Assembly: GCA_963835575.1 (NCBI GenBank)
Contig: CAWIGG010000002.1
Span: 1,216,001-1,280,000 of the forward strand
DNA: 64,000 nucleotides
Reading direction: 5' to 3'
Source of the DNA: an uncultured Spirochaetota bacterium
Lineage (GTDB): Bacteria; Spirochaetota; Brevinematia; Brevinematales; JAOACQ01
The first letter of the stretch is position 1. Each line of letters begins with the position of its first letter. The position numbers and the translations under genes are program-made. The notes under the pieces were generated by a model that did not search any database, had not been told where the DNA came from, and saw only the letters and a program-made list of their open reading frames with translations. Positions 1,090 through 36,556 of the stretch are shown here, piece by piece.

Positions 1090-1625
1090 GGCGCCTCCCT
1101 TTCTATACTATTATTGAGATAATTTTTCGGATATCATAAATCTAAATTAAAAATATTACAAATTCATAAAATTACATTTTATATGTTAGCAATATTTATA
1201 CCACTATAATTTACTCTTAATATTATACCATTTAATTGAATGAACTCATCATTTCCGTTCTTTTTAATCAAAAATGATATATCAGATGTGATAAATTATC
1301 ATAATTTTACTATTATTAATTTTAAATATATTATTATTTGACGATAACGGCAAGAAAATATTGCATTTTATAAAAGTTAAATGTTTTAAGTTTATAAACA
1401 AACTGAATTCATAATCGCCCAAATCAAATATAGAAAATATTAACCGATTTGATATCGTTATGTAATATATCGTATTGATATATTTTATAATGATATAATT
1501 TTTTTGTCAAGAAATATTTTAGTTTTTTAATTAATCAAATTCCTTAATTGCAGGCATAAATATCTTGAAGCAAACGTTTTTTTAATCAAAACTTCTAAAA
1601 AATAAAAACTCCGCTCAGATTATCA

Positions 1626-3021
1626 GAGTTATAATAGAAAGTTGTGTATAGGAATAAATATTATAAAAAAGATGGCGTACCCTCTATAATTTATTTACGA
1701 CAATAAACAAAAGGAGGAATACGCCATATGCCGAAGCACAACGAAGATTTTAAGCTCTTAGAGGCTTTTAATCAAGATGAAACAGTAGAATTTTTATGTC
1801 TTGAAGAATTGGCAAGGATCGGGGCCAGGGAAATAATCAAGAAGGCTCTGGAAGATGAAATTAATGGGTTTCTTCAGGAGAGAGAGCATTTAACTATCGA
1901 AGACGGGAGAAAGGCAATAGTAAGAAATGGGTATCATAAAGCCCGTCAGATTCTCATTGGTGGAGGGGCTATTGATGTATGTATTCCGAGAACAAGGAAC
2001 CGACTCGGAGGCGACAATTTTCAAAGCCTAATAGTACCGCCGTATATGAGAAAAAGCCTGAGAATTGAGGAAGCCATTCCATTGTTGTATCTCTATGGAG
2101 TCTCAGAGATGGATATGGAGAATGCCTTGAGAGGATTGCTTGGTGAAGAAGCGAAAGGATTATCAGCCTCAAGTATAAGCAGAATGAAACAAGGATGGGG
2201 TAAAGAATATGATGAGTGGCGGACATCCGATTTAAGCGATAAAAAGTATTGCTATATATGGGTTGACGGCATTTACTTCAATGTACAGGGCAGCGAAGAC
2301 CGTTTATGCACTCTTGTAATGATCGGAGCCAATGAGAATGGTGAAAAGGAGATTATTCTTGTTGAAGAAGGTTACAGAGAGAATTCCGAGACTTGGTTAG
2401 GGATATTAAGAAACCTAAAAGAAAAAGGTTTGAAAGGTCCTATTCTTTTTATCGGAGACGGAAGCCTTGGATTCTGGAAAGCAGCCAAAGAAGTATATCC
2501 TGAATCCAGATGGCAGAGATGCTGGGTTCATAAGATAAAGAACATTCTAAACAAGCTGCCCAAAGTATTACAGTCAAAGGCAAAAGAGATGCTTCATGAG
2601 ATATGCAATGCTCCTGATAAGGATAATGCTATCAAAGCTTTTGAATTATTCCAGGCGGTTTTTAATCCTAAATATCCAGCAGCTGTCGAATGTTTAGAAA
2701 AGGATTGGGAGCTTATGATCGAATTTTATAACTGTCCGGCGGAACATTGGGTACATATCCGTACGACAAACGTAATAGAATCTACCTTCTCTACAGTTCG
2801 ATTAAGAACTAAAAAGATGAGAGGCTGCGGAACCAGGGAAACGATTCTAATAATGGTCTATAAATTACTGGATAAGGCATCCAGGCGATGGAGAAAATTA
2901 AGAGGTTATGAAAAGATTAGCCTTGTATTGGAAGGCGCTGTTTTTGAGAACGGAGAGCTTGTAAAAAAGGCAGCATAAAAAAATGAGAGGGTATGTCATA
3001 CACAACATTTGACAAAAACTC
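1626..3021 (+). mobile_element. IS256-family insertion sequence, copy 1 (1396 bp)
   Basis: Imperfect 24-bp terminal IRs GAGTTATAATAGAAAGTTGTGTAT / rc GAGTTTTTGTCAAATGTTGTGTAT. 8-bp target duplication GATTATCA at 1618-1625 and 3022-3029. Confidence 0.95.
1728..2978 (+). CDS. IS256-family transposase
   Basis: Mutator-type motifs RNGY, YIWVDG, IGDG, QRCWVHK, IRTTNVIES. Confidence 0.95.
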   Translation: MPKHNEDFKLLEAFNQDETVEFLCLEELARIGAREIIKKALEDEINGFLQEREHLTIEDGRKAIVRNGYHKARQILIGGGAIDVCIPRTRNRLGGDNFQSLIVPPYMRKSLRIEEAIPLLYLYGVSEMDMENALRGLLGEEAKGLSASSISRMKQGWGKEYDEWRTSDLSDKKYCYIWVDGIYFNVQGSEDRLCTLVMIGANENGEKEIILVEEGYRENSETWLGILRNLKEKGLKGPILFIGDGSLGFWKAAKEVYPESRWQRCWVHKIKNILNKLPKVLQSKAKEMLHEICNAPDKDNAIKAFELFQAVFNPKYPAAVECLEKDWELMIEFYNCPAEHWVHIRTTNVIESTFSTVRLRTKKMRGCGTRETILIMVYKLLDKASRRWRKLRGYEKISLVLEGAVFENGELVKKAA

Positions 3022-3087
3022 GATTATCAATATTTGTTTGTTAATGATAAAATAATTCAAATTATCTCAATTTATTATATAATATTA

Positions 3088-23341: not shown

Positions 23342-25042
23342 CAGACTGTGTGAAAAAAGAGAATACATTTATAAGATCAGCCATCTAAAGGTTCCTGCTT
23401 ACTTTAAAGAAGAGCCTGAATAAAAAATTACTGATAATCATTGAAATTCAGACTATATTGCGGCTAATAACTTATCAAAACCAGCAATATTCAGAACTCT
23501 TTTAAAATTATAGATAAATGCCGTGAAATTAAACTCGCTTTTTACTTTATCAATCCCCTTCAGCAAGAAATTATTATAACCAAAATTTCCTTTTATTGTT
23601 CCAAATGGATGTTCTGCCAACTCTTTTCTGATTGCAACAATCTTTTGCCCCAATTCACTTCGGACCTTCTCATCGAATTTATCCATATCTTCCTTTCGCA
23701 CCGATAACTTTACCGTCCTGCCTTCTTTGCTTTTTGTGCATAAATGCTTCTTCTCACAATTCTCGTTCCTGCACTTGAATTCCGCTACAGTAATCCCCGT
23801 GTTTTTATCCTGATATACACTTTGATTATTTAATCGTAATCCTTGCGGACAAATCAACTGGTTCTTCTCTTTATCAATCTTGAAATCTTCTGCCAGATAT
23901 CCTTTTGCCGGGATACTTTCTTTCTGCTGCTCTTTGTACCTGGACTTTTTTTCTTTTTCATCGCGCGGGCTTGGAATATAGATTTCATGACCCCCGTCTG
24001 TAAGCGGTAATATCTCACTTTCGCAATAATATCCGGCATCCAGGACATGTATGGTTTTTAATCCCGGTTCGGCTTCAAGTTCTTTCTTTATTTCTTCAAC
24101 TTTATTAACCATATTTCCCGCTTGATGAACATCATTACTTTCATTGGTTACATCCACCGCGACAATCAATTTATTCTTTTCGTCCACTGCTATCTGCGCG
24201 TTGTACAAAACATCCGTTTTCCCTTTATCTTTCCCAATTCTGCCGTCGGGATCATTCCCGTAAACGATTTCAAGTTCCGGATCGGCCTCAAACATTTTTT
24301 TTATCGCTTCTACTTTTTCTTTTCTTGTCTTGAGGCTGTCCAGCTTTTTTTCAATGTTGCTGGATAAAAACTCAAACTCGTTTTCTTCCGATTTATCATT
24401 TTTATCCAATTCCAAAAGATATTTGTCTATTTTTTCATTAATCTTTTTCTCAACTCCTTCAATGCTTTCCCGCCTATAAATATTACCCAGACTGTTTTGC
24501 CCACTTATTTTCGTTCCATCTGTCGCTGTTAATTTAAATGTCAGCAGTTCTAATTTGCGGCATACTTTCAAAAACTCTTTGAAAATGTTTTTTATGCCCT
24601 TAATATTATCCCTTCTGAAATCCGCTATGGTCTTAAAATCAGGCGCTAAGCGGCAGGTCAGCCATATCAGTTCCGTATTCCTTTTACATTCGTTTTCTAA
24701 TTTCCTCGTGGTCCTGACTTTGTTCAAATATCCGTAAATATATATTTTCAACAATACATCCGCTGTGTAGGATGGACGCCCTTTTTTCGCCTCTTTAATT
24801 TTGAATCCCAACCTCCTGATGTTTAGTCTGCTCACATATGCGTCTATAATTCTTACAGGGTTCTTCTCTTCTATCAAACCATCAATAGTTTCCGCGTAAA
24901 GTACTATCTGGTCTCTTGGCTCTCCTGTTATATGGTTCATCTTACACACCTCAAATTTGATTACATATTATACCTTATTAAAATAAATTTGAGGATTTTT
25001 CTCCGCCTTTATTGTCTTACACCGCCTTTTTCACACAGTCTG
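23342..25042 (-). mobile_element. IS1182-family insertion sequence (1701 bp)
   Basis: 16-bp terminal IR CAGACTGTGTGAAAAA / TTTTTCACACAGTCTG; 3-bp duplication ATA on both sides. Confidence 0.93.
23453..24949 (-). CDS. IS1182-family transposase
   Basis: GRPSY, PDFKTIADFR, ATDGTK, YNAQIAVD, DAGY, CPQG, AEHPFGTIK. Confidence 0.95.
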   Translation of the reverse strand: MCKMNHITGEPRDQIVLYAETIDGLIEEKNPVRIIDAYVSRLNIRRLGFKIKEAKKGRPSYTADVLLKIYIYGYLNKVRTTRKLENECKRNTELIWLTCRLAPDFKTIADFRRDNIKGIKNIFKEFLKVCRKLELLTFKLTATDGTKISGQNSLGNIYRRESIEGVEKKINEKIDKYLLELDKNDKSEENEFEFLSSNIEKKLDSLKTRKEKVEAIKKMFEADPELEIVYGNDPDGRIGKDKGKTDVLYNAQIAVDEKNKLIVAVDVTNESNDVHQAGNMVNKVEEIKKELEAEPGLKTIHVLDAGYYCESEILPLTDGGHEIYIPSPRDEKEKKSRYKEQQKESIPAKGYLAEDFKIDKEKNQLICPQGLRLNNQSVYQDKNTGITVAEFKCRNENCEKKHLCTKSKEGRTVKLSVRKEDMDKFDEKVRSELGQKIVAIRKELAEHPFGTIKGNFGYNNFLLKGIDKVKSEFNFTAFIYNFKRVLNIAGFDKLLAAI

Positions 25043-28953: not shown

Positions 28954-29844
28954 ATGCCGGATTACAGAGATGATTTTCAAATTTATCTTACATACGAAAA
29001 AAAGCTGGCTAAAAATACCATTTCCGCTTATATGCAGGATATAGAGGAATTTCTTTTTTCCCTGGACGAAAATTTTTCTGTTGAAGAAGTAGACAAAGAT
29101 GATATTCTTGAATTTATTATATCTCTTAATGAAAGAGGGATTTCCAACCGCAGTATTGCACGTAAAATCAGCAGTTTAAAAGCCTTTTTCATCTATCTTT
29201 TAAAAACCGAAAGAATTGAAGAAAGCCCCATTGAGAAAATCGATTCGCCTCAATACCTTAAAAAACTGCCTCATTATCTGAACCTGGATGAAGTGGAAGC
29301 AATGATCCGGCAGGGCGAAGGCAGGCCGAGAGACATCCGGGATTCTTGCATTATAGAACTGCTTTATTCCTGCGGGCTGCGCGTCAGCGAACTCTGCGGT
29401 CTGAAAACAGGGGATATTTCCTTTGAAAACAGGGTTATAAGGGTGATGGGCAAGGGAAGCAAGGAAAGACTTGTCCCTATCGGCGGAAACGCAATCCAGG
29501 CTGTTAAAAAATACTTCACTTACCGGAGGGAATTATCGCCCCGTAAAGCCCTTCCTGATTTTCTATTTATTTCGAGGCTCGGTAAAAAGCTCACCCGCGT
29601 ATCGGTCTGGTCTCTCATAAAAAAAAGGGCGCTCAATGCCGGTATTGAAAAAGACATCACGCCCCACACGCTCCGGCACAGCTTCGCCACACATCTCTTG
29701 AATAACGGCGCGGACTTGAGGAGCGTCCAGGAAATGCTCGGCCACAGCGATATTTCGACGACGCAGATCTATACCCATGTGTCTTCCGATATTATCCGGG
29801 AAACGCATAGGAAATACCATCCGCTGGAAAAAGGGAACGGGTAA
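28954..29844 (+). CDS. xerD: Tyrosine recombinase XerD/XerC-type
   Basis: LLYSCGLRVSEL, GKGSKER, HTLRHSFATHLL, QEMLGHSDISTTQIYTH. At 296 aa it has no IntI-specific insertion. Confidence 0.9.
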   Translation: MPDYRDDFQIYLTYEKKLAKNTISAYMQDIEEFLFSLDENFSVEEVDKDDILEFIISLNERGISNRSIARKISSLKAFFIYLLKTERIEESPIEKIDSPQYLKKLPHYLNLDEVEAMIRQGEGRPRDIRDSCIIELLYSCGLRVSELCGLKTGDISFENRVIRVMGKGSKERLVPIGGNAIQAVKKYFTYRRELSPRKALPDFLFISRLGKKLTRVSVWSLIKKRALNAGIEKDITPHTLRHSFATHLLNNGADLRSVQEMLGHSDISTTQIYTHVSSDIIRETHRKYHPLEKGNG

Positions 29845-29873
29845 TCCGCTAAGGCACGCGAAGAAACGCGAAT
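29845..29873 (+). repeat. Outer inverted repeat IR-A, left arm
   Basis: TCCGCTAAGGCACGCGAAGAAACGCGAAT; 24/29 match to the reverse complement of 34814-34842. Confidence 0.8.
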
Positions 29874-29895
29874 CAATAGGAAGGCTTATTATACT

Positions 29896-29942
29896 GACCC
29901 CAATTCGGCAGGATTTACAGGATTAAACAGGATGAGCAGGAT
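29896..29942 (+). repeat. Inner inverted repeat IR-B, left arm (four CAGGAT boxes)
   Basis: GACCCCAAT-N3-G-CAGGAT-N3-CAGGAT-N4-CAGGAT-N3-CAGGAT; the same layout is inverted at 34520-34566. Confidence 0.85.
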
Positions 29943-30085
29943 TGAGGAATTACAGGAAGATGGAAGGCGGGAAGAGTGAATTGTAATACTAAATCTGTTC
30001 ACTATTTTAGAGTTTTTCGACAGGTCGTTGTGCGAAGGGCTTGGCAACCGTCGATACGAAAAACGGCACGGATGCCGTTTTCTTA

Positions 30086-30667
30086 CTATTTTTTTGTCCG
30101 ACTATTAAAATTTTTTATAATAATAGATACCCTTTCTTTTATAGTAAAATATTCTAATGCATTATAAAAGTCTTCATCTTTTAATTTTTTAATTTTTGAT
30201 CCAATATCTTTTCTCATACTTTTTATTAAGTTTATATATAATTTACGATTTTCATCTTTAGTATAAAATTGCCTATAAAAGACATCTATATTTTGAGTTG
30301 TAGCTGATTTACCATTCTTCTCTCGATATTCATTGCTTTTTGCTATAACATATTCAAAACATTTAATATTAATGATTGATAGATTATTTATTACATCTTC
30401 ATTAGCATATAACACTAATTTTCTTTCTAATTCTTCAAATTTTGCTTCAATAATTATTTTTTCATTTTCATTTGAAAAAATATTATTATCCCATTTCGTT
30501 TGTAATTCAATAAATTCCTGATAAATTTTAGTTTTTGTGTTTCTAATATCCCTGATTGTTTCTTGGCGTTTTGTAACAAAATAAGTAAGAAATGCACCTA
30601 TTACTAATGTTATTAATGGCCAAGATTTATTTAATATTGATAATAAGTTTGATAGTGTTTCATTCAT
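30086..30667 (-). CDS. Hypothetical AT-rich cassette-like protein with N-terminal TM helix
   Basis: 193 aa, much more AT-rich than uvrB/xerD; followed by a hairpin (30060-30081) and an R''-like GCACAAC (30027-30033, minus strand). Confidence 0.8.
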   Translation of the reverse strand: MNETLSNLLSILNKSWPLITLVIGAFLTYFVTKRQETIRDIRNTKTKIYQEFIELQTKWDNNIFSNENEKIIIEAKFEELERKLVLYANEDVINNLSIINIKCFEYVIAKSNEYREKNGKSATTQNIDVFYRQFYTKDENRKLYINLIKSMRKDIGSKIKKLKDEDFYNALEYFTIKERVSIIIKNFNSRTKK

Positions 30668-30728
30668 TTAAAAACCCCCGATTAAATCCGCCACGACGGC
30701 GGATATATATATTATAAAAAAAGCCGGC

Positions 30729-32063
30729 GGTCCGACTTCAAGACATAGGTTACACTTTAGCTTCAGGACATCGGTAACCCTTTTTGAGTACAAAATGCCC
30801 TTGAATTACTATTTCAGTATAGACCTAAATATAAAAGTATTCAAGTCCATACTACCTATCAGATTATTTTCAAACCACACATCCATAAAAGCTTTGCTTT
30901 TACTTTTTAAACCAATATGATAACCATCCAACGCATTTGTAATAAATACACGCCGACCTTTATAATAAATGTAACCTCTGTTATTAACCTTTCTGCTGAT
31001 GTATCCCTTGGGATATACAACCCAATCGGCTATCCCATCATAACTCCTAACCGATTTTATATAGACCATTGCTGGTGTTTTCATTCCAAGGCTTTCATGC
31101 GGTCTTTCCTCGTTGAACTCTTTTCTCCATTCGTTGAATACTGCCTGGTGCAGCTTCAGGCTACCGCTGATTTTGTTTTCCAGTTCCTTTTTCATATCCA
31201 GGTGCATCCTTTCATGTGCTCCGTTCTGATAGGGAGAGCCGGGATCAATTCTGTCCAGCTTTATGCCCAGAGACAACCACCATGCTGATAGTCTGGTTAA
31301 ACCAAGTAAACCCTGTGTACTGGCAAACGGCGGCCCATTATCGGATTTTATCATACTCGGTAATCCATATTGCTTGAAGAGTCTGTCAAATTCAAATTTG
31401 ACGGAACTAATATCACCTTTTTGCAGTATGGCTATGGATAAAATATATTTGGAATAATCATCACGTACTGTAAGTGGTTCGCATCTTTCCTGCTCGGAGG
31501 TATACCACCAGCCTTTGAAATCCACTGTCCAGATATCATTTGGTTTTTTCGGTGCTACCCTGTTCTGTATTCTTTCCGGATGTATGTGTCGTCTTCTTTT
31601 CCTTAATTCTACAAATCCGGCCTTTTTCAATATCCTTTCGACAGTGCTTAATGAAGGAATTTTATTATCCGGGTGGTTCCTGACATAAACCGACCTGATT
31701 TTCTTAGGTCCCCAATTCTGCTTCGTTTGCTTGATACGGATGATCTCGCAGATTATTTCTTCAGAAAGTTGATTAGGGCTTGAAAGCGGTTTCCTAGATT
31801 TTTCTTGAAGACCGGACAACCCTTCTTCATAAAACCTTTCTTTCCACTTATAACCGGTTTTTGTGCTGATCCCATATTCAGTACAAAGCTCGGTAAAGTT
31901 CACACCTTTTTGGAATGACTTTTCAATAAAAGCTAATTTCAGCTTCATGATATTAACCTCCTTCCAGGGCATTGTCAGCCTCCTTAATGAGATCTGACCT
32001 AATTATACCTGGAAAGTGTTACCTATGTCCTGAAGCTTTTCCGTTACCTATGTCCTGATTTCA
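30729..32063 (-). mobile_element. IS481-family insertion sequence (ends approximate)
   Basis: Two GACATAGGT(A/T)AC-like boxes at each end in inverted orientation; probable CCGGC duplication at 30724-30728 and 32064-32068. Confidence 0.85.
30809..31972 (-). CDS. IS481-family transposase
   Basis: MPWKE start, GISTKTGYKW HTH, WTVDFKG, SDNGPPF, QNGAHERMH, ERPHESL. Confidence 0.95.
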   Translation of the reverse strand: MPWKEVNIMKLKLAFIEKSFQKGVNFTELCTEYGISTKTGYKWKERFYEEGLSGLQEKSRKPLSSPNQLSEEIICEIIRIKQTKQNWGPKKIRSVYVRNHPDNKIPSLSTVERILKKAGFVELRKRRRHIHPERIQNRVAPKKPNDIWTVDFKGWWYTSEQERCEPLTVRDDYSKYILSIAILQKGDISSVKFEFDRLFKQYGLPSMIKSDNGPPFASTQGLLGLTRLSAWWLSLGIKLDRIDPGSPYQNGAHERMHLDMKKELENKISGSLKLHQAVFNEWRKEFNEERPHESLGMKTPAMVYIKSVRSYDGIADWVVYPKGYISRKVNNRGYIYYKGRRVFITNALDGYHIGLKSKSKAFMDVWFENNLIGSMDLNTFIFRSILK

Positions 32064-32077
32064 CCGGCAAGCCTTTC

Positions 32078-32255
32078 GCACAACGGTTAGCGTTTGCGAA
32101 GCCGCTGAGCCATACAGCTATGCTGTAGGCGAAGCGGTTTGGTGAGTCCTGCGTTTTTCTTCTTCGGCCTACCCGACGCAGGGCGAGTGCTGAGCACCGC
32201 AGGCCGTAGCGGCTGAGCGGAGGCCGAGGAGCGGAACGCCTACGCCGGGTTGTAC
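32078..32255 (-). other. attC-like recombination site (178 bp)
   Basis: On the minus strand it starts GTACAAC just after the upstream ORF stop and ends GTTGTGC. The interior is GC-rich with several short palindromes, set between two very AT-rich ORFs. Confidence 0.7.
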
Positions 32256-32546
32256 GAAGGGCACGGCCATTGTTATTTTATATTCAATAGATAATTATGT
32301 ATCATCTCTCTGGCAATTTCAATTACTTCTTTTCTTTCTTCACTTTTAGTTTCTCTTAAATCTTTTAACTTAAATTTAAAATGCCTACTTTTTTCTGTTG
32401 GTAAATTATTTGTATATTGTCCAAAAATACTCCTTTTTTGTTTTGAAATAAAATCTTTCCCAATATTTTTTTCTAAAAGATCTCTAATTTTATATAAAAT
32501 TGAAAACTCTGTATAGGAATATTTGACTGATTTAATGAATAAATCA

Positions 32547-33942
32547 GAGTTATAATAGAAAGTTGTGTATAGGAATAAATATTATAAAAAAGATGGCGTA
32601 CCCTCTATAATTTATTTACGACAATAAACAAAAGGAGGAATACGCCATATGCCGAAGCACAACGAAGATTTTAAGCTCTTAGAGGCTTTTAATCAAGATG
32701 AAACAGTAGAATTTTTATGTCTTGAAGAATTGGCAAGGATCGGGGCCAGGGAAATAATCAAGAAGGCTCTGGAAGATGAAATTAATGGGTTTCTTCAGGA
32801 GAGAGAGCATTTAACTATCGAAGACGGGAGAAAGGCAATAGTAAGAAATGGGTATCATAAAGCCCGTCAGATTCTCATTGGTGGAGGGGCTATTGATGTA
32901 TGTATTCCGAGAACAAGGAACCGACTCGGAGGCGACAATTTTCAAAGCCTAATAGTACCGCCGTATATGAGAAAAAGCCTGAGAATTGAGGAAGCCATTC
33001 CATTGTTGTATCTCTATGGAGTCTCAGAGATGGATATGGAGAATGCCTTGAGAGGATTGCTTGGTGAAGAAGCGAAAGGATTATCAGCCTCAAGTATAAG
33101 CAGAATGAAACAAGGATGGGGTAAAGAATATGATGAGTGGCGGACATCCGATTTAAGCGATAAAAAGTATTGCTATATATGGGTTGACGGCATTTACTTC
33201 AATGTACAGGGCAGCGAAGACCGTTTATGCACTCTTGTAATGATCGGAGCCAATGAGAATGGTGAAAAGGAGATTATTCTTGTTGAAGAAGGTTACAGAG
33301 AGAATTCCGAGACTTGGTTAGGGATATTAAGAAACCTAAAAGAAAAAGGTTTGAAAGGTCCTATTCTTTTTATCGGAGACGGAAGCCTTGGATTCTGGAA
33401 AGCAGCCAAAGAAGTATATCCTGAATCCAGATGGCAGAGATGCTGGGTTCATAAGATAAAGAACATTCTAAACAAGCTGCCCAAAGTATTACAGTCAAAG
33501 GCAAAAGAGATGCTTCATGAGATATGCAATGCTCCTGATAAGGATAATGCTATCAAAGCTTTTGAATTATTCCAGGCGGTTTTTAATCCTAAATATCCAG
33601 CAGCTGTCGAATGTTTAGAAAAAGATTGGGAGCTTATGATCGAATTTTATAACTGTCCGGCGGAACATTGGGTACATATCCGTACGACAAACGTAATAGA
33701 ATCTACCTTCTCTACAGTTCGATTAAGAACTAAAAAGATGAGAGGCTGCGGAACCAGGGAAACGATTCTAATAATGGTCTATAAATTACTGGATAAGGCA
33801 TCCAGGCGATGGAGAAAATTAAGAGGTTATGAAAAGATTTGCCTTGTATTGGAAGGCGCTGTTTTTGAGAACGGAGAGCTTGTAAAAAAGGCAGCATAAA
33901 AAAATGAGAGGGTATGTCATACACAACATTTGACAAAAACTC
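32547..33942 (+). mobile_element. IS256-family insertion sequence, copy 2 (1396 bp)
   Basis: Near-identical to 1626-3021; 9-bp duplication AATAAATCA at 32538-32546 and 33943-33951. Confidence 0.96.
32649..33899 (+). CDS. IS256-family transposase
   Basis: Identical to the 1728-2978 protein except EKISL becomes EKICL. Confidence 0.96.
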   Translation: MPKHNEDFKLLEAFNQDETVEFLCLEELARIGAREIIKKALEDEINGFLQEREHLTIEDGRKAIVRNGYHKARQILIGGGAIDVCIPRTRNRLGGDNFQSLIVPPYMRKSLRIEEAIPLLYLYGVSEMDMENALRGLLGEEAKGLSASSISRMKQGWGKEYDEWRTSDLSDKKYCYIWVDGIYFNVQGSEDRLCTLVMIGANENGEKEIILVEEGYRENSETWLGILRNLKEKGLKGPILFIGDGSLGFWKAAKEVYPESRWQRCWVHKIKNILNKLPKVLQSKAKEMLHEICNAPDKDNAIKAFELFQAVFNPKYPAAVECLEKDWELMIEFYNCPAEHWVHIRTTNVIESTFSTVRLRTKKMRGCGTRETILIMVYKLLDKASRRWRKLRGYEKICLVLEGAVFENGELVKKAA

Positions 33943-34420
33943 AATAAATCAATAATTTCTTTTAAAATAGAATTACTTTTATTTCTTACAATTAATTCAA
34001 TAAAATCATTAAACTTATATTTTGATGGAAGTATTTCTGTATTAATAATTTGATCATATGGTAATATTTCAGTATGTAGATTCTGATATTTTTCTATAAA
34101 ACTAAGTTTTTGTCTAAAAAAATCATTTTTTTCTCCAAAAGTTGCTGATTCAAAAGAAATTAAATATGGTCTATATGAAATTATCAACTGTGTTATAAAA
34201 TAACAATTTATTATATCATAAATACTATTTACTATTTCAGAATCCTTTTTTAACTCAACTGAATTTACTTCTAATGAAATAGAGCCATTTTCGATTAGAA
34301 AATTATAATTTTGATTTTTATAATTAATAATCTGCTCAAAATAATTATTTGGATAATATTTCCAATAGAATTCATAAAGCCCTTCATTATTCATGATAAA
34401 ACTCTTTCATATAATAAATT

Positions 34421-34440
34421 GGCCGTGCCTTTCGTACAAC
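34421..34440 (-). other. Array-head (attI-like) junction
   Basis: Minus-strand GTTGTACGAAAGGCACGGCC just before the first cassette ORF; 19/20 inverted match to 32249-32268; no attC body upstream. Confidence 0.55.
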
Positions 34441-34475
34441 TCGTAATAAATGAAATTACTACTCTATGCCATTAA

Positions 34476-34505
34476 ATTATACCCTGCTATATATTTCTTT
34501 AGCAA
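34476..34505 (-). promoter_or_regulatory. Candidate sigma70 promoter reading into the cassette array (Pc-like)
   Basis: Minus-strand TTGCTA-N18-TATAAT ending 35 bp upstream of the GTT junction. Confidence 0.45.
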
Positions 34506-34519
34506 TATTAAAATTGGTT

Positions 34520-34566
34520 ATCCTGTCAATCCTGCACCATCCTGCCGATCCTGCTCTATTGGGGTC
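34520..34566 (-). repeat. Inner inverted repeat IR-B, right arm
   Basis: Reverse complement is GACCCCAATagaGCAGGATcggCAGGATggtgCAGGATtgaCAGGAT. Confidence 0.85.
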
Positions 34567-34813
34567 CACACATTCGCTTTAATGCCATCGAGCAAGGATT
34601 TTTTACATAAGAGCTTTTATGAATCAGGGTGTAGCCATCCATCTTTTCAGTCTGCATCGCCGGACAAAACCATAAAACGGCTCAAATAAAACTAAATCTT
34701 ATAAAATCCGCCAAATCCGCGTTGATCCGCGTGAACAATCGGATATTATAATATAGAATCGTTAATTAAAGATTTTTTTTATCTTGAGAGTTTAGTTTTA
34801 ATAAATTATTATT

Positions 34814-34842
34814 ATTAGCGTCCATTCGCGTGGCTTAGCGGA
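34814..34842 (-). repeat. Outer inverted repeat IR-A, right arm
   Basis: Reverse complement is TCCGCTAAGCCACGCGAATGGACGCTAAT; ends 5 nt from the stop codon at 34848. Confidence 0.8.
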
Positions 34843-34847
34843 AGACC

Positions 34848-35507
34848 TTAATCCTCTTTTTCCTGAAGCCTTCTTTTGTTTTTAATAAGACGGTAAATAT
34901 CCGCCAAGTTCTTGATGGTTATTTTATTGACGCTCCGCTCAATCCTGCCCATATTCGAATAACGGACAAGGTATTTTTCGCATTCCTGCGCGTCCAGGCC
35001 GCACCAGTGAGCGATATCTTCCGCGCGGACATTCTCCAGCTCGATCGGCTTATTTTCCTGATAGGTGGATGGAATGATCCCTTTTAACTCAACAAGCATC
35101 AGAAGCGTGTCCAGCACTTTGGACTCATTTTCCTGAAGCGAGAGTATTTCAAGCCTCCGCTGGCTGTCAAATATACGCTTCGAAATGATCTTTATCAGTG
35201 AAAGCGCCCATATGGGGTTGGTAATAAGAAGCTCATTAAAATTCTGCTTTTTCAGCACGACAAGCTTGACCGGCGTTTCCGCTATGGCCGTAGCGCTCCG
35301 GGGAGCGTCCTCTATTATGGCCATTTCGCCGAATATAGCCGGAGGATCCATGACATCAAGGGTTTTTTCTTTGTTATCCTGAATTTTTGTCAATCGGATC
35401 TTGCCTTCTTTAATAATATAAAACTCATCGCCCTTTTCATATTCGCAAAATATGATATCCCCTGGATTATAGGATTTCTCATATTTATCCAGGACTTCTT
35501 CACCCAT
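34848..35507 (-). CDS. Crp/Fnr-like cyclic-nucleotide-binding protein
   Basis: GDIIFCEYEKGDEFYIIKEG; FGEMAIIEDAPRSATA phosphate-binding cassette. Confidence 0.9.
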   Translation of the reverse strand: MGEEVLDKYEKSYNPGDIIFCEYEKGDEFYIIKEGKIRLTKIQDNKEKTLDVMDPPAIFGEMAIIEDAPRSATAIAETPVKLVVLKKQNFNELLITNPIWALSLIKIISKRIFDSQRRLEILSLQENESKVLDTLLMLVELKGIIPSTYQENKPIELENVRAEDIAHWCGLDAQECEKYLVRYSNMGRIERSVNKITIKNLADIYRLIKNKRRLQEKED

Positions 35508-35521
35508 AACTTCCGCCTTTA

Positions 35522-36556
35522 TTAAGCGCCCATTCTTTCTTTGGCTTTTTTGGAAAATTCATCAACAGGATGCATCATCACTATTTTTTGAAGAATGGAC
35601 CTTTCGCCTTCTTTATTATTCAACTGTTTATAAATATCCGCTAAAATAAACAAAGTTTTTTTGATCATTATGACATCTTTGACTTCTTTCAGATATTCAG
35701 TGATCTCCTGACTGCATTCATTGAATTTATTCAATTTAAAAAGGGTCGTGAAATACATCATCTTGGCATTATTGATCATTTCAGGATTGATCATTGTATT
35801 TTCAAGGGCAAAAAGGTCTTTGAATATTTTTTCAGCGCTATTATAATCTTCTCCGTTAAAGAACGACTGCGCCCTGTAAAACTTATCCATCACTTCCCGG
35901 ATGCCTAATTTAGAATGCGCGTTTTCCATGCTGATCTTTGTATCGCCGACTGCCGTGATATTACCCGCAATTTCACCATCTATAATCTGATCAATCGGCT
36001 TAAACTCCTTCATAAAACCGGTTTTAACGGCTTCTTCGCAGAGTTCTATCCTGTATTTCGCCTCAGTGACAATATTTGTCTGGGGATACTGCTCAATATA
36101 GTGCTGATAAACCTGAACAGCCTGTTTATACTGCTTTGTGTTGATATAATATTCGCCGATTTTAAAAAGTCCTATATTCGGCGGATAGAGGACATTATTG
36201 CCGAGATAATTATTGACTTTGATCCCCAGATTGCGGAGCTGATTTGACAGGACCCGGAGGAGCCTTTTCATTAATTCGACATTTTTGGATACATAAGCCT
36301 CAAAATCCGGAATCTTGAACTCGATCGTGAGAGAATCCGTTACCGATTCGGCGATCTCATCGCGGGTATGATTTATAATAGCCGATTTCAGCCCGAAGAA
36401 TTCGCCCTGACTCAAAGTCTTGACTATTTTCTCGCCGCTTTCAGGCTGAATAAAACTGAGGTCCACTCTTCCGCTCTTTAAAATAAAAATACTGTCGCCC
36501 CTTTCATGGTCGAAATAAATGATTGATCCCTCTGTAAATTTTCTCTCAGTCGGCAT
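35522..36556 (-). CDS. Cyclic-nucleotide-binding domain plus TPR protein
   Basis: IFILKSGRV, GEFFG; TPR-like LFKIGEYY...YKQAVQVYQHYIEQYP. Confidence 0.85.
   Translation of the reverse strand: MPTERKFTEGSIIYFDHERGDSIFILKSGRVDLSFIQPESGEKIVKTLSQGEFFGLKSAIINHTRDEIAESVTDSLTIEFKIPDFEAYVSKNVELMKRLLRVLSNQLRNLGIKVNNYLGNNVLYPPNIGLFKIGEYYINTKQYKQAVQVYQHYIEQYPQTNIVTEAKYRIELCEEAVKTGFMKEFKPIDQIIDGEIAGNITAVGDTKISMENAHSKLGIREVMDKFYRAQSFFNGEDYNSAEKIFKDLFALENTMINPEMINNAKMMYFTTLFKLNKFNECSQEITEYLKEVKDVIMIKKTLFILADIYKQLNNKEGERSILQKIVMMHPVDEFSKKAKERMGA

Follow-up and report, generated by a model that had tools for sequence, protein, structure and literature searches.

REPIN/RAYT systems are short multicopy intergenic elements with inverted ends. 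Bacterial MITEs, as defined in the available parts of two papers (PMC11389934; PMC3575428), may also surround integrons: in the accessible part of the latter, MITE-flanked class 1 integrons and IMU lie between two identical whole MITEs of 288 or 439 bp, and transposition creates a target duplication (PMC3575428). CALIN, SALIN and attG insertions are attributed, in the accessible parts of the reports, to loss of the integrase, to rearrangement, or to insertion at off-target positions that share a 3-nt motif (PMC8618304; 10.1101/2022.09.11.507474; PMC11389934). Paired tandem-repeat sites with units of 7-8 nt in Geobacter metallireducens are read as regulator binding sites in the available part of the paper that describes them (PMC2700814).

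In the window, i.e., the whole stretch of 64,000 nucleotides that was analysed, xerD and a Crp-like gene are separated by an island of ~5 kb, of which 2.7 kb are made up of two insertion sequences, each encoding a transposase of its own (Table 1). The repeat arms of this island enclose a putative cassette-loading head (candidate promoter plus attI-like site) of the genome's own integron system, which is the main point that the original prediction for this DNA had overlooked.

Anatomy of the island

Table 1. Features of the island and its flanking genes (positions in the window).
Feature	Position	Strand	Remarks
xerD	28954..29844	+	TIGR02225, 351.7 bits (cut-off 329.6); host gene, left flank
A left-type arm	29836..29873	+	three boxes of 10 bp, the first at 29845; conserved end starts at ~29836-29838
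B arm, left	29893..29977	+	core 29896-29942, shared tail to 29977
Truncated attC, cassette 2	30006..30036	-	R'' core, then remnant resembling IS1182-family ends
Cassette 2 gene	30086..30667	-	193 aa, 21.5% GC
IS481-family element	30728..32066	-	inserted ~17 nt into cassette 2; transposase at 30809-31972
attC of cassette 1	32075..32258	-	R'' at 32258, R' crossover ~32084
Cassette 1 gene	32273..34394	-	~20% GC; split in two by IS256
IS256-family element	32547..33942	+	transposase 32649-33899; 9-bp target duplication
attI-like site	34438..34454	-	crossover core at 34440; sequence match
Candidate sigma70-like promoter	34476..34505	-	10/12 consensus match, 18-nt spacer; faces cassettes
B arm, right	34520..34569	-	inverted-repeat partner of left B arm
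C arm	34685..34749	-	outer part of recurrent C-spacer-B compound end; points inward
A right-type arm	34814..34847	-	ends at stop of Crp-like gene
Crp-like cNMP-binding gene	34848..35507	-	PF00027; host gene, right flank

Read inwards from the right, the A-right arm is followed by the C arm, the B-right arm, the candidate promoter, the attI-like site and the cassettes. Each arm is a row of direct boxes, and the two ends of A are of different types, left and right. Two nested, box-structured inverted-repeat pairs around two cassettes had been predicted originally, and this picture holds: the boxes measure 9-10 bp, the outer arms (29845-29873 / 34814-34842) match at 24 of 29 positions and the inner ones (29896-29942 / 34520-34566) at 34 of 47, and both cassettes lie between them. 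The C arm, the two insertion sequences, and the candidate promoter and attI-like site inside the right-hand arms had escaped attention. The stop codons bounding the outer pair (29844 for xerD, 34848 for the Crp-like gene) had been placed correctly, but A does not begin at the first base after the xerD stop: because its conserved end lies ~7-9 nt further left, the element overlaps this stop and the last codons of xerD, and the conserved A-right end runs 4-5 nt further right than had been assumed. A general role of left A arms in providing stop codons was considered and rejected, as only 2 of 93 begin directly after a long ORF in a count of ORFs of ≥120 aa. The left B arm (29896-29977) shows an 84% match to C2:1083122-1083209.

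In all four same-genus genomes, xerD adjoins crp at an empty site and the island is absent, and its edges coincide with the arms in this comparison, as expected from the prediction; the Crp-like gene is 88-90% identical in four relatives. A second copy of the whole island was not found in the genome, and an Rfam search gave 0 matches.

As in integrons, the cassettes consist of a gene and an attC site with complementary R''/R' cores, and the predicted integron-type nature of the cargo is borne out. With one whole and one truncated attC and no integrase nearby, the island has the make-up of a CALIN. Unlike a complete integron, it contains no integrase gene, xerD being convergent and 25% of the way off; on this contig, the nearest array integrases are at distances of ~0.8 and 1.2 Mb, and the others are encoded on different contigs. 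The attC of cassette 1 is of the same family as the main-array attC sites and 76-87% identical to array copies, and its E-value in the attC model is not independent because the site served as a training seed. Its folding z-scores are -3.0 and -2.8, with a predicted fold that is not one long hairpin. The gene of cassette 2 has one homologue (54%), and its protein has no match in Pfam or NCBIfam; the N-terminal piece of cassette 1 has none in Pfam.

The remnant beside the truncated attC is probably an IS1182-type end, judging from its sequence: IS1182-like ends were also seen in other broken attC sites, and beyond a comparable junction at C2:1630.5 kb lies an intact IS1182-type gene. An alternative reading of 30006-30026 as attI, with the array running on the + strand, was dropped because similar junctions lead into IS1182-type genes. 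The IS481-family element has 4 other copies in the genome and the IS256-family element 31 other near-full ones. Neither transposase belongs to the arms, and therefore the earlier statement that neither pair has a transposase of its own stands.

Arms and attI-like sites across the genome

The arm models detected 525 tandem-box arms genome-wide, against 2 in a shuffled genome; the A, B and C families number 154, 52 and 68 arms, respectively, with 0 of each after shuffling. Arms are absent from the 92 kb of main arrays, compared with 12.7 per 100 kb. The scan placed 106 of 169 A arms in inward-facing pairs, so that they are not mere singletons, and the view of the arms as ends of multicopy elements that are gene-less or carry cargo and nest in one another is upheld. 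The assumption of one hotspot proved too narrow, as many loci of the genome show nesting and carry cassettes as cargo. The absence of a target duplication was also corroborated: the flanks of 44 short A elements, the true ends of which are known only to within a few nt, share words of 3.48 nt against 3.60 in shuffled pairings.

The arm families are mostly MITE-like, i.e., multicopy and non-coding with terminal inverted repeats (97 of 141 pairs span ≤350 nt), and some enclose a GxxExxY nuclease gene, which is the recurrent single-gene cargo of arm pairs. Six of the nine GxxExxY genes lie within closed arm pairs, and none of the nine is flanked by B or C arms; the three enclosed by A pairs (C4:157426, C6:78851 and C6:112723) are 74-81% alike as against 37-54% to the rest. 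Among the GxxExxY papers listed, no title or abstract opening dealt with repeats. A cognate IS with the same ends as the MITE-like elements was not found, the transposases within arm pairs having ends of their own. H pairs around IS1182 genes were rejected as autonomous forms, since the IS has here inserted into short H elements, and RAYT/Y1 is not favoured as mobiliser, with two weak Y1 matches in the genome, one of them inside an A/H pair.

The main arrays carry short integrases at their heads (212-214 bits against TIGR02249), for instance at C6:427147-428202 and C2:46.7-47.8 kb, and no canonical IntI in the genome exceeds the TIGR02249 cut-off. The attI motif is that of such short, patch-less integrases: of its 45 matches in GTDB, 14 flank an integrase of this type. 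By a model trained only on the main arrays, the site in the window has the second-best off-array score; it is a candidate attI of the array head by sequence match, and it lacks the upstream accessory boxes found at integrase-linked attI sites. The AT-rich island contains 30 promoter-like matches compared with 19 in shuffles. The candidate at 34476-34505 may act as a promoter; related promoters follow 5 other arm stacks, and 6 of the 12 genome matches to its motif sit behind arm stacks.

At 7 of the 11 top off-array attI-like sites, an inward-pointing arm lies within 450 nt (p 1.5e-5, with score cut-off and distance picked after examples had been seen), and an eighth site is separated from its arms by IS256. 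Looser score cut-offs give 8/18 and 10/32 arm-linked sites. The background is 3% for all core sites and 9.4% for gene starts with free upstream DNA. All seven arms point toward the site and none away, compared with 97 toward and 139 away at gene starts. C3:170856 was not counted because its J arm lies within an ORF. Beside the island, the genome holds ~10 more arm-wrapped putative cassette-loading stations; the integrase-less clusters of this one chromosome that begin with a candidate promoter and an attI-like site inside oriented arms number ~10. Since only ~10 of 187 unpaired arms point at such a site and 1 of 86 short arm pairs holds one, the arm element as a rule comes without an attI.

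Among the sister loci, C4:466119-467141 consists of a C arm, one cassette and a C arm, and the same gap is empty in all four same-genus genomes; C4:356982-357737 contains a site that closely resembles the integrase-linked attI at C2:46588. Further closed examples are C4:370483-372050, C2:1771030-1773546 and C5:158531-166063, and several satellites have no closing arm. The heads of several loci are homologous, i.e., C6:171585 and C4:599179 (z 15.5) and C4:971075, C5:159045 and C4:370813 (z 7-9), and so are the C-B spacers of four sister loci (z 7-18). The head in the window has diverged most. Against the sisters, its C-B spacer reaches z ≤3.9, no higher than the best shuffles, and its promoter region has z 4.0-5.5, which equals or slightly exceeds the best shuffles.

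At the purE locus, one of the four same-genus genomes is empty, one has an unrelated gene and two have other neighbours; no usable synteny was found in these genomes for the loci at C2:1631 kb and C5:158 kb. Arms occur at 0 of the 45 GTDB attI matches and at 0 of 10 orphan attI sites in five relatives, one of which (G006) has several arm-less heads with a common promoter. No match to a narrow arm-plus-attI pattern turned up among 400 other genomes from the phylum, and two hits in metagenomes were both due to chance.

Origin of the island

The island is best explained, with a probability of roughly 0.55, as an integrase-less satellite integron platform inside arm-bounded elements, which was loaded in trans and of which the arm-plus-promoter heads were copied around the chromosome, the arms being moved in trans. 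An outer A element would enclose an inner B/C element, and the compound end of the latter at the right (C arm, spacer, B arm) would lead into the promoter and the attI-like site. A short integron-type tyrosine recombinase from the main-array heads would have loaded the two cassettes in trans, which IS481, IS256 and an IS1182-type element would have struck later. The head with arm and promoter would have been copied as a unit, each copy capturing different cassettes. Movement of the arms without target duplication would most likely be due to GxxExxY (PD-(D/E)XK) proteins, encoded inside full-length forms of the elements, a role that is speculative. A further-reaching reading, tentatively proposed with clearly less confidence, sees in the arms the termini of a so far undescribed system that captures genes without target duplication and in which subtype-matched GxxExxY nucleases act in trans. 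In this genome, it would have acquired promoter-plus-attI heads from a patch-less integron and would spread them as non-autonomous "satellite integrons". One family of recombinases would then supply many first positions, each expressed on its own, and another family of enzymes would move the platforms.

Alternatively, the arm elements could carry an inward promoter only, and cassettes might have landed singly at secondary attG-like, attI-resembling AT-rich sites and been kept because they were expressed, without an attI ever being carried along. At C2:480397 and C2:1631280, the same promoter follows a B arm although no good match to the attI is present, the 20-31 nt from promoter to crossover align poorly among the sisters, and off-target insertion near promoters is documented for IntI1-3 in the available part of one report (10.1101/2022.09.11.507474). 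However, attG sites share only a 3-nt consensus, as far as the accessible sources go, whereas the attI-like sites keep a match of ~14 nt to the integrase-linked attI; two satellites (C4:357102 and C6:171585) retain longer attI-like stretches, and such a site is all but absent from empty elements. This explanation is rather unlikely. It is less probable still that orphan integron heads came to lie at the 3' ends of host genes through horizontal transfer or loss of the integrase, and that arms and insertion sequences then piled up at these tolerant spots without any movement as a unit. Accretion of this kind would agree with the 31 of 45 GTDB attI matches that have neither arms nor an integrase in the 1.5 kb fetched, with the satellites without an upstream arm (C6:144153 and C4:246947), and with IS256, which is also found near arms (7/31 copies within 800 nt). 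Yet, independent insertions upstream of attI would leave both arms there, whereas the upstream arms point inward only; several loci have a closing arm beyond the last cassette, and homologous compound ends recur.

The position beside xerD could also be functional, with XerD acting on the arms as dif-like modules. Apart from the adjacency itself, there is an A arm behind a second gene for a tyrosine recombinase as well (C4:114167). Against this, xerD is an ordinary chromosomal gene in conserved synteny, the A arms are spread all over the genome, and a dif-like layout presumably differs from rows of direct boxes; this possibility is very remote.

In long arrays, only the first cassettes are expressed. 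If the satellite-platform reading is true, satellite heads would multiply first positions and so ease this limit. The locus offers substrates for two enzyme families, i.e., short integrases that lack the IntI patch and nucleases of the GxxExxY type.

Comparison with described systems

Literature searches, in which subscription papers were sparsely covered, revealed no description of arms around orphan integron heads. The elements resemble MITEs, as described in the accessible sources, in being short, multicopy and intergenic, with inverted ends, nesting and capture of cargo. They differ from MITEs and REPIN/RAYT in the lack of a target duplication, in their variable interiors and in that no cognate DDE transposase was found and the Y1 matches are weak. 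The sites of Geobacter metallireducens are likewise tandem-box rows paired on opposite strands at variable distance with adjoining IS, but without a link to cassettes in the available part of the paper, and the arm motifs had no match in 12 of its 19 supplements (PMC2700814).

With MITE-flanked class 1 integrons and IMU, as described in the accessible part of the source, the island shares non-coding repeats on both sides of an integron part, the absence of its own transposase and a movement in trans that is proposed or demonstrated (PMC3575428). In contrast to the two identical MITE copies of IMU, the flanks here are short single arms, 72-83% alike, which belong to several families and are nested and polar; there is no duplication and no integrase gene, and ~10 loci are involved. 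As in CALIN and SALIN, to the extent described in the accessible sources, the cassettes lie away from an integrase gene and can be served in trans, but, unlike in CALIN, SALIN and attG insertions, an attI-like head and a candidate promoter are kept inside oriented repeat arms. The integrase-less clusters of this chromosome thus point to a further route of origin, by mobile loading stations, and suggest that wrapping such stations in repeats is a way of scattering integron platforms around the chromosome.

Arm families and the edges of the island

The inverted repeats of the island belong to families of tandem-box ends, here called arms. Profile scans of the source genome recovered 525 arms in eight families, including 154 A, 52 B and 68 C arms, as compared with 2 matches in a shuffled genome. 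Inward-facing pairs accounted for 106 of 169 A matches, mostly as one left-type and one right-type end. Single arms made up 146 of 307 arm clusters, and same-direction stacks of arms from different families occur at many loci. Looser cut-offs gave 573 matches vs. 15 in the shuffle, 16 located deep inside genes being removed, and 141 pairs, i.e., 97 of ≤350 nt and 44 larger ones. Cargo of the larger pairs includes toxin-antitoxin and restriction-modification genes, ISs and genes of unknown function (scan of 29 of 74 cargo ORFs). A search of 44 short A elements for target duplications found none. The A family has expanded in the source genome, with 136 pattern matches there vs. 0–9 in 40 relatives.

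Seven back-to-back A arms, 9–26 nt apart (including C2:1782244, C5:100599, C6:78801 and C3:129114; C numbers denote contigs), are arranged as tandem insertion or end-to-end junctions would give, and are useful for mapping the true element ends. A pair of tyrosine recombinases occurs twice beside a variant A-like arm (C4:1048164, C4:1061834, C4:1037332), and a nested A/H pair at C2:494938-501365 contains the clearer RAYT-like Y1 gene of the genome, with IS elements alongside.

The island lies between xerD, a chromosomal gene, and a gene for a cNMP-binding regulator. The latter belongs to a tandem pair of cNMP-binding genes (34848-36556; TPR repeats in the second) that faces uvrB-xerD convergently and shows 81–90% conservation within the genus. 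In four of four same-genus genomes, the convergent xerD and crp-like genes have their stops ~25 nt or less apart; four loci from other genera have other neighbors. The 5-kb island is therefore a lineage-specific insertion edged by A arms. The original prediction had correctly put the edges at the arms, with the start directly after the xerD stop; conservation across 70 left-type and 58 right-type A arms shows that each end reaches a few bases further out, so that the left one overlaps the xerD stop. Both predicted arm pairs were recovered in place, and a C arm between the right-hand A and B arms had been overlooked.

Features of the island, in minus-strand order from the right
Feature	Position	Strand	Remark
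A arm, right	34814-34842		24/29 match to closing A arm
C arm
B arm, right	34520-34566		34/47 match to closing B arm
Sigma70-like promoter (predicted)	34505-34476	-	behind B arm
attI-like site	core at 34440	-	between promoter and cassette 1
Cassette 1		-	gene split by IS256
attC of cassette 1			184 nt
Cassette 2		-	IS481 at start, then 193-aa gene without assigned function
attC of cassette 2			cut after R'' by a probable IS1182-like end
B arm, closing	29896-29942
A arm, closing	29845-29873

Cassettes and the attI-like site

The 184-nt attC of the island is of the same family as the attC sites of the main cassette arrays of the genome. These arrays are located at contig ends, total 92 kb, lack any arm and have at their heads short tyrosine recombinases with scores under the IntI cut-off. 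A pattern for the head site matched 45 GTDB loci. Since a short-integrase homologue lies within 160 nt at 14 of these, in both orientations and in bacteria and archaea, the motif is probably, on sequence grounds, the attI motif of that integrase family. Orphan copies are common (31/45). Among the records L047-L091, the motif is divergent from the integrase in several Patescibacteria and Gammaproteobacteria, and co-oriented with it in Treponema, Leptospira and archaea. Under a model trained solely on three integrase-linked attI sites and main-array cassette starts, the site in the island ranked second among off-array sites.

All four IS481-family copies examined (window 30728-32066; C2:2273, C6:167501, C6:414411) sit a few bases into a cassette, adjoining the attC R' core, an apparent target of this family. 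IS1182-family elements are found just after R'' in attC sites (C2:614, C6:413827, C4:972 kb) and in H-type arm elements (C2:1987850, C3:53880, C6:115034). The window also contains an IS1182-type transposase gene (23453-24949) and a second IS256 copy (1622-3039).

Origin of the integrase-less heads

The most likely reading, with a probability of roughly 0.55, is that arm-bounded elements carry heads, i.e., a promoter plus attI, that these heads would have been copied around the chromosome, and that short integrases would load cassettes there in trans, the arms moving by a duplication-free reaction with GxxExxY as the best candidate enzyme. At 8 of the 11 best off-array attI-like sites, an inward arm lies within 450 nt, or at 7 of 11 after exclusion of a site whose arm is inside an ORF; the background is 3% for core sites and 9.4% for gene starts that have free DNA upstream (p = 1.5e-5), the score and distance cut-offs having been fixed after examples had been viewed. 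Looser cut-offs gave 8/18 and 10/32. A further top-11 site is separated from its arms by IS256. None of the top sites had an outward arm alone, and at gene starts 97 arms pointed toward and 139 away. Starting from arms, four more putative integrase-less loading loci (satellites) were found (C4:599179, C4:357102, C4:466206, C2:1631 kb). Closing arms follow the cassettes in the window and at C4:466 kb, C4:357 kb, C4:370 kb, C4:599-605 kb, C2:1771 kb and C5:158-166 kb; none could be found at C6:171 kb, C4:210 kb or C2:1631 kb. At C4:466 kb, two C arms enclose one cassette, and the gap that this element fills is empty in four of four same-genus genomes. Satellite heads sort into related groups; four sisters share a homologous C-spacer-B end, the copy in the window being the most diverged and only weakly tied to them. 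Repeats of this kind have been linked with GxxExxY genes. Six of the nine GxxExxY (PF13366) genes of the genome lie inside closed arm pairs (3 A, 2 D, 1 E), and the protein subtype tracks the arm family.

Next in rank, and unlikely, is that the elements bring only a promoter, behind which cassettes enter at secondary sites. Independent pile-up at tolerant spots comes third and is improbable. Several findings count against arm-borne heads. attI is no regular component of arms, an attI-like site occurring at ~10 of 187 unpaired arms and in one of the 86 short pairs. The genome contains no second copy of the island, and none of its nine GxxExxY genes is flanked by B or C arms. Arms of the families defined here were absent from orphan attI sites of other genomes (0/45 and 0/10), and the association of arms with attI may be a peculiarity of this genome, which is rich in arms. 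Heads have multiplied by a different route in one relative (G006), where several integrase-less attI heads (L114, L116, L119, L120) share a promoter stretch and keep upstream accessory boxes without such arms. An arm-less satellite is located downstream of an hldD-like gene (C6:141.6-144.2 kb): three AT-rich genes with an attI-like site 22 nt past the stop of the host gene. Its attC, which had served as a training seed, fits the array model with an E-value of 3e-21.

Relation to known systems

In excerpts of a report on Geobacter, paired tandem-box sites are described as putative regulator sites (PMC2700814). The literature searched yielded no description of arm-wrapped attI platforms. The island would work like a MITE-integron or IMU composite, but, as far as the IMU is described in parts of PMC3575428, that element has two identical whole MITEs and the island does not. 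It differs from a classical MITE in showing neither target duplication nor a cognate IS, and does not qualify as a complete integron. By the definition in sections of PMC8618304, PMC11389934 and 10.1101/2022.09.11.507474, it is formally a small CALIN. The island is real as observed, an arm-wrapped form of known kinds of elements.
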